Assembly: GCA_963743755.1 (NCBI GenBank)
Contig: CAVUQU010000003.1
Span: 382,408 to 446,407, forward strand
DNA from: an uncultured bacterium
GTDB taxonomy: Bacteria; Acidobacteriota; Aminicenantia; Aminicenantales; Saccharicenantaceae
Reading direction: 5' to 3'
DNA length: 64,000 bases
In this document: one piece after another, positions 15,572 through 18,632 of the stretch
Numbering within the stretch: position 1 is the first letter of the stretch
Layout: every line of letters begins with the position of its first letter
Made by a program: the position numbers and the translations under genes
The notes under the pieces: model-generated
Seen by the model: the letters and a program-made list of their open reading frames with translations, nothing else
Told to the model about the DNA's origin: nothing
Databases searched by the model: none

Positions 15572-15600
15572 ATTATCCGGCGCGGTCGTCCTTAAGTCAA
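15572..15600 (-). promoter_or_regulatory. Putative sigma70 promoter for rluB (nearly leaderless); -35 supplied by the end of the repeat element
   Basis: TTGACT-N17-GATAAT, then 8 nt to the ATG at 15563; no Shine-Dalgarno. Confidence 0.55.
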
Positions 15601-15779
15601 GGCGATCATCCCAAGAACGGGTGGCGGGGGGCTAGTCCCCGTCCGTCTGGAGGCGGAAGGGGCCCCGGGCTTTGGTCGGGGGCCCTTGGTCCCCGACCAA
15701 AGGCCCGGGGGGATGGGTGGAGCCGAAGCCGGATGGGGACGCCACCCGACAGGACCCGTTCGGGGATGATCGCCTTGAC
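15596..15779. repeat. 184-bp rod-like palindromic intergenic element, copy A
   Basis: Perfect 17-bp terminal inverted repeat GTCAAGGCGATCATCCC/GGGATGATCGCCTTGAC plus nested stems; homologous to the reverse complement of 18334-18506. Confidence 0.9.
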
Positions 15780-15850
15780 CGAAGAAGAGAAATAAGTTGA
15801 ACGGAGATTCAGGGGATTCGTATATATAGGGTAGAATATAAGGAAGACCC

Positions 15851-17089
15851 ATGGCCAAACTGCAGTTCAAAGAATCGTTCACCATGGCCTTGGTCTCCCT
15901 CCGTTCGAACAAGCTCCGCACCTTCCTGACCCTGCTCGGCATCATCATCGGCGTCCTGACCATCATCGCCGTCGTCTCCGTCATCCAGGGCCTCAACAAC
16001 TACGTCTACACCAAGATGTCGTTCTTCGGGGCCAACGATTTCTCGGTCCAGAAGTTCTCGATGATCGGCACATCCCTCAAGGATTTCCGCGAGCAGATGA
16101 AGCGCAAGGACCTGACCATGGTCGAACGCGATCTCATCCGGGCCAACTGTCCCTCTTGCGAGCTCGTCGGGGCCAGCGCCTCGACCAGCCAGACGGTCAA
16201 GTACGGCAGCCAGTCGCTCAAGGAGACGGATGTCCGCGGCGTGACCCACATCGACCACGAGATCGGATCCGTCGTCGAGCTGACGACAGGGCGCCACCTC
16301 CAGAGCCAGGACGAGTCGAACGCCCGCGCCGTCGGCGTCATCGGCTCCGACGTCGCCGAGAAGGTCTTCGGCGGGCTCGATCCGCTCGGCCGCTGGCTCA
16401 AGGTCGGCAGCCGGAACTTCCAGATCATCGGGGTCGCCAAGGCCAAGGGCAAGATCCTCGGCTTCAGCCAGGACAATTTCATCCGCATCCCCATCACGAC
16501 GTTCAACAAGGTCTACGGCTCGCGGCGCTCCATCAGCATCAACATCCACACCGGCTCCCAGGAGCAGATGGCCCAGGCCCAGGAGGAGGTCCGGACGGTC
16601 CTCCGATCCTGGCGGAAGCGCTCCTATGACGACCCGGACGACTTCTCGTTCGCCACCTCGGAGACGTTCATCCAGTTCTACAAGACGGCCACCTCCGGCA
16701 TCTACTTCGCCATGCTCGGCCGTCTCCTCGATCGCCCTCATCGTCGGCGGCATCGTCATCATGAACATCATGTTCGTCTCGGTCTCCGAGCGGACGCAAG
16801 GAGATCGGTATCCGCATGGCCGTCGGGGCCCGGCGCCGCGACATCCTCTTCCAGTTCCTGATCGAATCCGCGGTCATCTCCGGCCTGGGCGGGTTCATCG
16901 GCATCGTCCTCGGGCTTCATCGTCGCCCGGATCATCTCCGCGGCGACGTCCATGCCCTCGAGCGTCGAGCCCGTCTCGGTCGTTCTGGCCATGGTCATGT
17001 CCTGGTCGATCGGCCTGTTCTTCGGCATCTATCCGGCCAACCGGGCGGCCAAGCTCGATCCGGTCGAGGCCCTGCGGGCGGAGCTATGA
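15851..17089 (+). CDS. MacB/FtsX-family ABC transporter permease (frameshifted)
   Basis: [16 protein letters not shown]..., [20 protein letters not shown]-terminal [15 protein letters not shown] reassembled across frames. Confidence 0.88.
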
Positions 17090-18332
17090 GAATCCAGATC
17101 TTCCGCGAAGTCTTCCGGATGGCCTTCGATTCGATCCGGTCCCACAAGCTCCGGTCGTTCCTGACCATCCTGGGCATCGTCATCGGGGTCATGACCGTCA
17201 TCGGCATGGTCTCGATCATCCAGGGACTCAACAAGAGCTTTCTCTCCGAAGCTGCAGGCGGCCGGCTCCGACGTCATCATGATCAGAAAGAACGAGGCCG
17301 TCCAGATGGGGCGGATGTCCGAGGACGAGCGGACGCGCAAGGACCTGACTTTCGAGGACGTCAAGGCCATCGAGGCCGGCGCGCCGCTGGCGAAAGCGGT
17401 GGCCGTCAGCATCTACGTCAGCGTTCTTCGAGCAGACCGAGGTCAAATACCAGAGCGCCAAGAGCGACACCGCCATGGTCATCGGGATGAACGAGAGCTG
17501 GCCCACGGTCATGTCGCTCTACCTGCCCCGGCTGGGCCGGTTCATCACCGGATCGGAGGTAGACCGCTCGGCCCGGGTCTGCGTCCTCGGCTCCGAGCTG
17601 GCCGACACCCTCTTCCCGACCACGAACCCCGTTGGCAAGGAGATCCGTGTCGGCCCCGAGGCTTTCACGGTCGTCGGCGTCCTGGCCAAGCGCGGCCAGA
17701 TGTTCGGCCAGAGCCGGGACAATTTCGTCGGTCTGCCCATCACCACGCTGATGAAGTACTTCCCCTACGAGAAGGACGGCCTGGAGATCATCACCGCCCC
17801 CCGGGCTCAGGACACGCTCGGCGAGACGATCGAACAGATCCGGAACGTCCTCCGCCAGAGGCGCAAGGTCCCCTACGGCAAGCCCGATGATTTCTCCGTC
17901 ATGACCCAGGACTCCATGGTCGACCTCTACAACCAGCTGACCGGCGCGGCCTATCTGGTCATGATCGTCATCTCCTCGATCGGCCTGCTCGTCGGCGGCA
18001 TCGGGGTCATGAACATCATGCTCGTCTCGGTCAAGGAACGGACGCGGGAGATCGGCATCCGCAAGGCCATCGGGGCCCGGTCGGGCGACATCCTGAAGCA
18101 GTTCCTCATCGAGGCCGTCTTCCTGACCGGTGTCGGCGGCCTCCTCGGCGTCCTGGTCGGCTTCGGCATCGCCCTCATCGTCAAAGCCGCGACGCCGCTG
18201 CCGGCGACCGTCTCCCCCTGGTCCGTCGTCCTGGGACTCTCGGTCTCGGCCGCGATCGGCCTTTTCTTCGGCATCTTCCCGGCCCAGAAGGCCGCGCACA
18301 TGGATCCGATCGAATCCCTCCGCTACGAATAG
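17086..18332 (+). CDS. MacB/FtsX-family ABC transporter permease, second paralogue (frameshifted)
   Basis: [59 protein letters not shown] overlap with the previous gene. Confidence 0.9.
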
Positions 18333-18333
18333 A

Positions 18334-18506
18334 GCGCTTATCTCTTCGAACGGGTCCTGTCGGGTGGCGTCCCCGTTCGGCTTCGGCTCCACCCATCCCC
18401 CCAGGCCTTTGGATGGGACTAGTAATCCCGTTCAAAGGCCCGGGGCCCCTTCCGCCTCCAGGCGAACGGGGACTATCCCCCCGCCACCCGTTCTTGTGAT
18501 AAGCGC
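18334..18506. repeat. 173-bp rod-like palindromic element, copy B (inverted relative to copy A)
   Basis: Reverse complement aligns with 15596-15779; own terminal stem GCGCTTATC/GATAAGCGC. Confidence 0.9.
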
Positions 18507-18604
18507 CTTTGCAGCTGAAGTTTTTTTCGAGATTTTTCCCAGACGCGCCGCTCCGAGCCGCTCCGCAGCGCATATGGTCCTCCGCTTCGCTCCGGGTAGA
18601 CCCT

Positions 18605-18632
18605 CCCGATAGGACCCGTTCGGGGATGATCG
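18605..18632 (+). repeat. Partial copy of the 3' end of element A
   Basis: CCCGATAGGACCCGTTCGGGGATGATCG matches 15745-15772 with one mismatch. Confidence 0.8.

Follow-up and report, generated by a model that had tools for sequence, protein, structure and literature searches.

The window (the whole 64,000-nucleotide stretch of DNA that we analysed) contains two copies of a rod-like element in inverted orientation, one on each side of two tandem genes for ABC permeases of the MacB/FtsX type (15851..18332, forward strand; Pfam MacB_PCD and FtsX). In this assembly, single-base indels interrupt the reading frames of the permease genes. Copy A (15596..15779, forward strand) is a full element with a long apical hairpin and the palindromic ends GTCAAGGCGATCATCCC...GGGGATGATCGCCTTGAC; its core in our covariance model spans positions 15612-15770 (match G000:C3:398019-398177, 121.7 bits). 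Copy B (18334..18506, reverse strand) is also a full element, with a covariance-model match at C3:400746-400903(-) that scores 133.2 bits. It directly adjoins the stop codon of the second MacB-like permease gene (18330-18332), and sits 3' of a convergent alaS-like gene.

Both copies lie where the original prediction had placed them, and A does resemble the reverse complement of B: the two align end to end, with 87% identity over positions 4-167 of A. All four of the shared segments that had been quoted are present in A and B, as are the differences listed for the terminal stem (GCGATCATC/GATGATCGC versus GCGCTTATC/GATAAGCGC) and the middle stem (GTCCCCGTCCG/CGGATGGGGAC versus GTCCCCGTTCG/CGAACGGGGAC), and the rewriting of the apical hairpin can be seen in the alignment. 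A third partial end reported at 18605-18632 is genuine, being the 3' tip of a longer fragment, C (18530..18632, forward strand). Fragment C represents the 3' portion of a variant ('F-type') element that has the same 3' end as the A/B element, GATAGGACCCGTTCGGGGATGATCG, and a different interior. It has 89-91% identity to C4:1104025-1104283 in the same genome, whose interior is in turn a member of another repeat family, present also at C2:38753, C1:131777, C4:989085, C4:1245261 and C8:32468.

At the left tip of A we found a promoter-like site (15572..15600, reverse strand), composed of a -35 box from the end of the element (TTGACT) and a -10 box from the flank (GATAAT), and directed outward toward an rluA-like gene. 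It is a consensus match only, one such site being present at A where 0.2 would be expected from shuffled sequences.

Because two inverted copies 2.5 kb apart bracket two genes, one could take A and B for the inverted termini of a composite transposon with the permeases as its cargo. However, the permeases are host genes outside the element. All 42 genomes of the genus have a match to the flank that contains the end of the second permease gene, and 40 of the 42 have one to the flank that contains the start of the first. Among those same genomes, the site of A is empty in 13 (32-42 nt, versus approximately 259 nt here) and the site of B is empty in eight (19-43 nt, versus approximately 343 nt). 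Moreover, A and B differ from each other in their terminal stem and apex, and there is no duplication around the A-B pair. Given these empty sites, and the flipped copies in sister species that are described below, the permeases are flanked by chance and a composite transposon is extremely improbable; the flanking of the permease pair, which formed part of the original prediction, is incidental.

A conserved strand-asymmetric scaffold

The element is 120-285 bp long, and its two arms pair into a rod of 120-230 nt. The predicted fold of copy A has an energy of -138.3 kcal/mol, compared to a mean of -90.6 in shuffled sequences (z = -10.4), and that of copy B has an energy of -99.9 kcal/mol (z = -6.8); in both cases none of 200 shuffles was as good. 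The inner arms make up a constant, strand-asymmetric scaffold with a core of about 70 nt, which reads GGGUGGC-N-CGGCG-NNA-GUCCCCG...GCAGCG on its 5' side and GCGAGGACGGACGGGGAC-G-CGCCG-N-GACAGGACCC on its 3' side. Around this scaffold, the outer ends are of at least three kinds. Its apex is exchangeable: in the window copies it is a short G-rich module, and it can also be a G-quadruplex-like module or consist of nested insertions of other small repeats. Two segments that had been described as unpaired, GGCGGGGGG and GCCACCC, in fact pair together to form the helix CNGGGGG/CCACCN'G, which is backed by G:C, C:G and A:U exchanges in other copies. An alternative pairing, CGGGTGGCG/CGCCACCCG, is present in A and B as had been proposed, but the common CGGGTGGCC/CGCCACCGG variants disrupt it, and it is therefore not conserved.

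The helices covary strongly. In a MAFFT alignment, 13 of the 27 pairs called by RNAalifold stay paired through changes on both sides. An alignment of 88 copies fitted to the covariance model, in which the copies are related and the cells are not independent events, has double changes at 16 of 28 pairs; 92.4% of its cells are paired, compared to 82.5% when shuffled (none of 500 shuffles was as high), and its covariation score is 0.260, compared to at most 0.067 for slid partners. The covariation spans three helices, and the bulges are conserved. On the G-rich strand, G-U and U-G combinations account for 63 cells and A-C and C-A combinations for 21, leaving out two dubious pairs. This strand is also the better folder in 65 of 78 copies. 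Because the helix covariation is strong and G-U exceeds A-C by about 3:1, the data point to selection on the scaffold for a single-stranded fold, in RNA or in single-stranded DNA, and the earlier proposal that selection acts on secondary structure appears to be borne out. Gene conversion within the hairpin could be an alternative source of the arm-to-arm covariation.

Distribution, ends and insertion sites

A and B are not a private pair. By BLAST, this genome has four full-length copies of the element and several partial ones, and by covariance model it has seven core copies. The model matched 83 of 151 genomes in the order, which belongs to the Candidatus Aminicenantes lineage, leaving 68 without a match. 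By family, the positive genomes are 20/20 in f7, 20/43 in f6, 16/27 in f3, 21/44 in f1, 3/6 in f9, 1/3 in f4, 1/1 in f8, 0/2 in f2 and 0/4 in f5. Scored copies per genome reach at least 19, and one genome of 2.5 Mb contains 29 copies of the 3' motif compared to none of a control pattern, so that related genomes of the order have anywhere from 0 to about 29 copies. Half copies and nested copies are common. In 150 genomes of the phylum from outside the order, there was a single weak match, of 36.6 bits; among the genomes listed from the same class but outside the order, none of 11 had a match. The neighbors of the element are housekeeping genes, with a transposase adjoining 1 of 28 loci. In co-directional intergenic regions the orientation is unbiased, with five copies in sense and six in antisense; sequence alone suggests one further antisense case.

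Copies are present at some orthologous sites and absent at others. Copy A has orthologs in four genomes (G015, G022, G031 and G032) and copy B in one (G015), and another site, D, is empty in three genomes (52-53 nt, versus 248 nt when occupied). The element can also be flipped at the same locus, as D is in G020 and G029 and B is in G029. Among four public sequencing runs, which we examined as assembled contigs with a depth of 2-8 over the elements, one contains a contig with an inverted allele.

In other families of the order, the core lies within a classical MITE that has terminal inverted repeats of about 23 bp (consensus G[G/A][A/T]AGCATCTCCGTTTCCGTGAT) and 9-bp target-site duplications, so the statement that this is not a classical IS end fails when the whole family of elements is considered. 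In five genomes, 160-270 nt separate the paired inverted repeats. We recognised both inverted repeats in 21 distinct copies, of which eight have perfect direct repeats of at least 8 bp at their ends; in five of these eight, the repeats are exact 9-mers that share a single fixed offset. When left and right ends were paired at random, 2 of 1909 pairings gave such repeats. A, B and most copies of their genus have different, palindromic ends (GTCAAGGCG.../...CGCCTTGAC), and a duplication is not demonstrable for them because the flanks of the empty sites have diverged. Likewise, no target duplication is evident around the outer GGTGACACACAACTCAATAC-type repeat in the copies of one sister genome. 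For the window copies, with their different ends, it is therefore presence and absence at orthologous sites that speaks for mobility.

The element is thus small (under about 300 bp), non-coding and dispersed in many copies, it has terminal inverted repeats, and it is polymorphic for presence at the orthologous sites A, B and D. Its dispersed copies and its empty sites in sister species agree with the original description of a repeated, non-autonomous, MITE-like element. We conclude, with a probability of roughly 70%, that A, B and fragment C belong to an undescribed family of MITE-like miniature non-coding elements that is confined to one order of the Candidatus Aminicenantes lineage.

Candidate partners and related repeats

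The inverted repeats of about 23 bp and the 9-bp duplication in other families of the order suggest that a DDE-type transposase, acting in trans, would make a staggered cut and insert the element into intergenic DNA. IS1 has 23-bp ends and a 9-bp duplication, but as a candidate partner it was rejected, since none of the 151 genomes has an IS1-type DDE transposase above the cut-off. The transposases of IS256 and IS4/IS5 were also rejected, there being no matching ends at 10 loci. An open reading frame that precedes one 3' half-copy could have been cargo or part of an autonomous copy, but it looks host-type (we take it to resemble an ArsC/LMW-phosphatase-type gene) and the copy is truncated. Nine neighborhoods of solo ends contained host genes only, and a search of one genome with a loose pattern for the ends returned only noise (18 forward and 18 reverse matches, versus 3 and 4 for controls). 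No autonomous IS with the same ends was found in the genomes of the order, but most of these are MAGs from short reads, where copies of IS frequently go unassembled, so a missing partner is weak evidence. With respect to a SINE-like dependence on reverse transcriptase, this genome, at 71% completeness, has no match to RVT_1.

The original prediction had offered a REPIN-type element, which a RAYT (Y1/HUH) transposase would mobilise in the form of single-stranded DNA. Like REPINs, this element is an extragenic palindromic repeat that forms hairpins, occurs in many copies and has compensatory changes in its stem, and Y1_Tnp genes are widespread–there are two in this genome, and 127 of the 151 genomes of the order have one. 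However, neither of the two has the element at its flanks (the model scores no more than 14 bits in the vicinity), and one is flanked instead by a different hairpin repeat, its own REPIN. The distributions also disagree: Y1_Tnp is unmatched in at least 11 of the 83 genomes that have the element (for example G081, G078 and G050, with 13-17 scored copies), and conversely 55 of the 68 element-negative genomes do have a match. Nor do the ends fit, because 9-bp target duplications and 23-bp inverted repeats are not known as features of HUH transposition (IS200/IS605). With no RAYT gene associated with it, and with inverted repeats and duplications of its own, the element is very unlikely to be a REPIN; it is also 3-5 times longer. 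Separately, this genome does have a genuine RAYT, accompanied by a hairpin repeat of its own.

Closer parallels to a MITE-like element are known from other bacteria. The Correia/NEMIS elements of Neisseria and the ERIC elements of Enterobacteriaceae are non-coding intergenic repeats of 100-160 bp with terminal inverted repeats and target duplications. As RNA they are predicted to form a stable rod; they are found in both orientations, and they can contribute promoter elements (PMC3184786). The same source describes bcr1 of the Bacillus cereus group as a mobile, transcribed intergenic repeat between 5-bp direct repeats, cruciform-like with two stem-loops, in which compensatory base changes preserve a structure that is double-stranded in the RNA (PMC3184786). 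Our element resembles Correia/NEMIS and ERIC in being a long hairpin with inverted repeats, with a promoter-like site at A and, in other families of the order, with target duplications, and resembles bcr1 in its compensatory changes, but it differs in having a 9-bp duplication rather than TA, and in being a single predicted rod with 9-bp repeats, unlike bcr1. It has no sequence similarity to Correia/NEMIS or to ERIC (which has internal insertion sites), is restricted to a single order of the Aminicenantes lineage, and has a strand-asymmetric scaffold, common to its families, with an exchangeable apex. The literature searches that we made found no paper on such an element.

In the MITE-like reading that we favor, the window copies would be old, fixed insertions, shared with a few sister species and without recognisable duplications, that lie by chance on both sides of two host permease genes. 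After insertion, the long inverted arms may let the asymmetric core flip in place. The arms may also attract further insertions and so produce nests such as that beside B. The scaffold, for its part, would be kept by selection on the single-stranded fold of the G-rich strand, in read-through RNA or in single-stranded DNA.

RNA readings and significance

The element is ordinary in kind, but its folded core is unusually well conserved. A scaffold that spans families with different ends, covaries and has a strand-specific excess of G-U pairs exceeds what a selfish DNA transposon needs, and this counts against the MITE-like reading. The element does not correspond to a familiar RNA. In line with the original prediction, which had recognised no known family, it matches nothing in Rfam: a scan of positions 15000-19200 gave only noise (E-values of about 0.7-1), and 18 variant loci gave only one chance miRNA match. 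Its rod shape and a similarity of its GGCCAGUCCCC to E. coli 6S suggested 6S RNA, but RF00013 had no match in this genome. That negative is weak, because the control was detected in only 5 of 14 known genomes; the multi-copy nature of the element argues against 6S RNA as well. An origin from SRP RNA, with which we take it to share short strings, was rejected because the genome has its own SRP RNA (C1:390695-390794), unlike the element.

One could go further and regard the family as a functional structured ncRNA gene or cis-acting RNA module specific to the order, in which the scaffold is the working part and the transposon traits are secondary; the RNA gene would then ride on MITEs, or MITEs would have inserted around it. 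Besides the conserved asymmetric scaffold, its covariation, G-U excess and range of outer ends, this idea draws on copies at conserved loci whose outer stems are entirely different–for example, a tandem pair between the alpha-2-macroglobulin and pbpC genes that this genome has in common with G006 and G010. The better folding of the G-rich strand points the same way, but any G-rich sequence would give that result. We nevertheless consider such an RNA family unlikely. The two orientations to flanking genes are about equally frequent, so the element is not a cis-regulator; we saw no conserved promoter or terminator, the sole promoter-like site pointing outward; and half and nested copies are frequent in a family whose copy number varies so widely among related genomes and that has no match in nearly half of the order.

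Somewhat less doubtful, though still tentative, is a reading in which the scaffold is a working single-stranded module. It might be an order-specific class of structured RNA carried on MITEs, its apical domain being exchangeable and including versions of G-quadruplex type, or it might be a fold recognised by a hairpin-binding protein, in which case the folded scaffold would be the actual substrate of the protein that moves or flips the element. The strand-specific G-U excess, the covariation over three helices, the conserved bulges and the conservation across different terminal repeats are all consistent with this reading. If true, a class of structured RNA on MITEs would be a bacterial counterpart of the RNA genes borne by SINEs.

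The MITE-like family adds a repeat to the catalog of a large, uncultured and ecologically widespread lineage, and by the searches made none such is in print or in Rfam. By recognising the element, those who annotate these MAGs can avoid mistaking it for an ncRNA gene, a terminator or a composite transposon. Its copies also flag hot spots where intergenic DNA is rearranged, and it can serve as a strain-level marker. Because an asymmetric scaffold with covarying helices and a swappable apex persists across families with different terminal repeats, the element is also well suited to asking whether some bacterial MITEs are retained for a function that they have in single-stranded form, and not just for the binding of transposase.

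Copies of the rod element in the window and across the order

The window contains two copies of a hairpin-forming repeat that we call the rod element: copy A at 15596-15779 on the forward strand and copy B at 18334-18506 on the reverse strand. The reverse complement of B aligns to A from end to end, with 87% identity by BLAST. As originally predicted, the two share G-rich segments, their terminal and middle stems differ yet stay complementary, and the apical hairpin is rewritten. Each copy folds into one long imperfect hairpin (-138.3 kcal/mol for A, compared to -90.6 for shuffled sequences, z = -10.4; -99.9 for B, z = -6.8), and in neither case were any of 200 shuffles as stable. 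The 'third partial end' proposed nearby is real, but it belongs to a longer fragment (fragment C, 18530-18632, forward strand). This corresponds by homology to the 3' half of the F-type variant, an element elsewhere in the genome (C4:1104025-1104283) that has a different interior.

The element is indeed repeated, and is more than a pair. By BLAST, the genome under study (3.53 Mb in 13 contigs, 71% complete) has four full copies, namely A, B, C4:87714-87888 and C4:1139405-1139571, plus several partial or core-only copies. A covariance model made from 39 copies found seven core copies in this genome and matched 83 of 151 genomes from the same order, including all 20 genomes of one family, with scored copy numbers per genome reaching at least 19. 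A motif from the 3' side of the scaffold described below occurs 29 times in one 2.5-Mb genome, compared to 0 for a control pattern. Searching 150 other genomes of the phylum with the model gave a single weak match. There were at least 119 exact-pattern matches and, among the matches listed, record titles point to Candidatus Aminicenantes or Aminicenantales, with a few MAGs labelled otherwise. Rfam gave no match to this region of the window or to 18 variant loci, and a full-text literature search found no paper on such an element.

A constant scaffold with an exchangeable apex

By comparing approximately 150 copies we derived a constant scaffold that ends in a junction leading to an exchangeable apex. 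Its outer helix, which in this genus reads GAACGGGU/ACCCGUUC, is followed by an internal loop that is asymmetric (GG on one side, GACAGG on the other), then by a second helix that reads CNGGGGG/CCACCN'G here and NCGGCG/CGCCGN' elsewhere, a bulge of 3 nt (NNA) and a third helix (GUCCCCG/CGGGGAC). The apex can be a short G-rich module (GGAAGGGG-UUCC-CCACGGGGGGAUGGGUGGA, with an extra hairpin in A and B), a G-quadruplex-like run, a third short module, or an insertion of 100-200 nt. Because of this anatomy, part of what the original prediction called 'conserved unpaired loops' is a helix that is conserved, and the other part is one apical module among several.

At least one apical insertion is a repeat family in its own right, namely the one that forms the interior of the F-type variant. 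This palindromic family is also the source of window positions 18530-18584, and occurs without rod-element ends (C2:38719-38894, C1:131777-131959, C4:989085-989214, C4:1245261-1245382 and C8:32468-32592 of this genome). Several genomes contain another recurrent apical insertion, about 110 nt long (loci L178, L183, L191, L195, L201, L106 and L127); it holds AUUAAUCCCCCCUACCCCCCUUGAGCAAUCAAGGGGGG, a hairpin with a GCAA loop, and has no Rfam match. At other loci (L089, L091, L115, L125, L130 and others) the apical module is a canonical G-quadruplex motif, such as GGGGCGGGUGGGCGGG or GGGGUGGGUGGGGGGG. Opposite this motif is a 5' arm, rich in C, that is able to pair with it, so a hairpin/quadruplex switch is possible, judging from the sequence.

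The stems vary in a way that preserves pairing, which points to selection on the fold. In a plain MAFFT alignment, RNAalifold gives 27 pairs, and 13 of these still pair despite changes on both sides. In an alignment of 88 copies, which was fitted to the covariance model and whose cells are not independent events because the copies share ancestry, double changes occur at 16 of 28 pairs, with up to five pair types per position; 92.4% of cells are paired, compared to 82.5% in shuffled controls (none of 500 was as high), and the covariation score is 0.260, compared to no more than 0.067 with the partners shifted by 1-3 columns. Complementarity of the arms could also be maintained by mismatch correction within the hairpin DNA. 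G-U and U-G combinations (63 cells) outnumber A-C and C-A (21 cells) when two poorly supported pairs are excluded, an asymmetry expected if the G-rich strand folds. That strand folds better in 65 of 78 copies, as any G-rich strand would.

Insertion sites, inverted cores and neighboring genes

Several observations indicate that the element is mobile DNA. Other families of the order have the scaffold within a unit with inverted repeats of about 23 bp at both ends, and such repeat pairs are found 160-270 nt apart in five genomes. Perfect direct repeats of at least 8 bp flank 8 of the 21 distinct copies with both ends recognised, compared to 2 of 1909 random flank pairings. Five of these eight are exact 9-mers at one fixed offset, and the flanks of three further copies match by eye at 7 or 8 of 9 positions. 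The empty-site comparison suggested in the original prediction showed that sister species have short empty sites at the loci of A (32-42 nt in 13 genomes; about 259 nt in this genome), B (19-43 nt in 8 genomes; about 343 nt) and D, a further copy-bearing locus (52-53 nt in 3 genomes; 248 nt). In other species these sites hold copies that are rearranged, nested or reduced to a half. Between the same flanks, the core is in the opposite orientation at locus D in genomes G020 and G029, as it is at locus B in G029, and in one contig of a public run the left tip of A continues into an inverted core. Recombination between the arms would flip the core in place, and would yield exactly such inverted alleles.

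Two MacB/FtsX-type permease genes lie between A and B. The flank with the end of the second gene is matched in 42 of 42 genomes of the genus and the flank with the start of the first in 40 of 42, many of them without A or B, which rejects a composite transposon; A and B are independent insertions into two neighboring intergenic regions. Single-base indels break up the permease genes (15851-18332) and an alaS-like gene (18473-21604) into several frames. Contigs of public runs, from RNA as well as DNA, differ by one base at such places, and the splits look like indel-prone assembly rather than real pseudogenes. A's left tip supplies TTGACT, 17 nt from GATAAT, reading outward to a divergent rluA-like gene (one promoter-like site by consensus match, compared to 0.2 expected). 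Elsewhere in the window, six direct repeats of about 174 nt (42604-43710; 61-74% identical over a 62-nt stretch by a repeat finder) could be a gene for a repeat-domain protein.

Neighbors of the element are ordinary housekeeping genes, and a transposase adjoins only 1 of 28 loci. In co-directional intergenic regions the element is sense in five cases and antisense in six, with one further antisense case judged by sequence only, and because of this balance we rejected a cis-regulatory leader. The intergenic region between the alpha-2-macroglobulin and pbpC genes holds a tandem pair of core copies (C4:434037-434346; locus L062, 6037-6346) whose outer stems are quite different and which run antisense to both genes, and at this site G006 and G010 have a copy with a large apical domain. 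Further palindromic families, with ends TTCGGTGACACACAACTCAATAC, CGGGGACGCAATA... and GGGGACATGATACCTATTTCCC, occupy the same intergenic hot spots around or beside the element (L039, L040, L042, L053 and L217 in sister genomes; C4 ~87660-87700 in this one); no target duplication is evident for the TTCGGTGACACACAACTCAATAC-ended family.

Mobilization and relationship to known elements

We found no autonomous mover in the loci and genomes examined. The proposed REPIN/RAYT link did not hold, as this genome's two RAYT-like Y1_Tnp genes have no rod element at their flanks. One of them (a 315-aa ORF; C4:1168218-1171541, locus L213, 840-2010) is bracketed by a different hairpin repeat, GAAGGGACCAGGTCTTCGCA...TGCGAAGACCTGGTCCCTTC, with 31 copies in the genome by BLAST hits, one of them in the window (47591-47653); in sister genomes, this repeat is also found beside the rod element in hot spots. 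Repeat and gene together make up a classical REPIN/RAYT system distinct from the rod element. Of the 151 genomes of the order, 127 have Y1_Tnp, including 55 of the 68 element-negative ones. At least 11 of the 83 element-positive genomes lack it, three of which have 13-17 scored copies. Nor did a search of this genome (71% complete) yield the suggested reverse transcriptase.

Because of the 9-bp duplication, a DDE-type enzyme acting in trans may move the element; duplications of this kind are associated with such enzymes in transposition generally. No IS1-type DDE gene exceeded the cut-off in the 151 genomes, and there were no matching ends or transposase at ten IS256 or IS4/IS5 transposase loci or in nine neighborhoods of solo ends, in searches made mostly of fragmented MAGs, where IS copies are often unassembled.

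Tested as a REPIN/RAYT element, as a member of any Rfam family and as a composite transposon, the rod element failed on all three counts. It works like the bacterial MITEs Correia, ERIC and RUP, which have inverted repeats and target duplications, fold as RNA into stable rods and may contain promoters, and like bcr1 of Bacillus, in which compensatory changes preserve structure (PMC3184786). Compared to these elements as described there, it has a duplication 9 bp long, is restricted to one order, and combines one asymmetric scaffold and an exchangeable apex across subfamilies with different ends; as far as testable, it has no sequence in common with them. We regard the rod element, with a probability of roughly 0.7, as a real MITE family with a structured core, a new family of a known kind. 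The more interesting possibility, which we think unlikely though not far-fetched, is that the scaffold may have a function of its own as RNA or single-stranded DNA.
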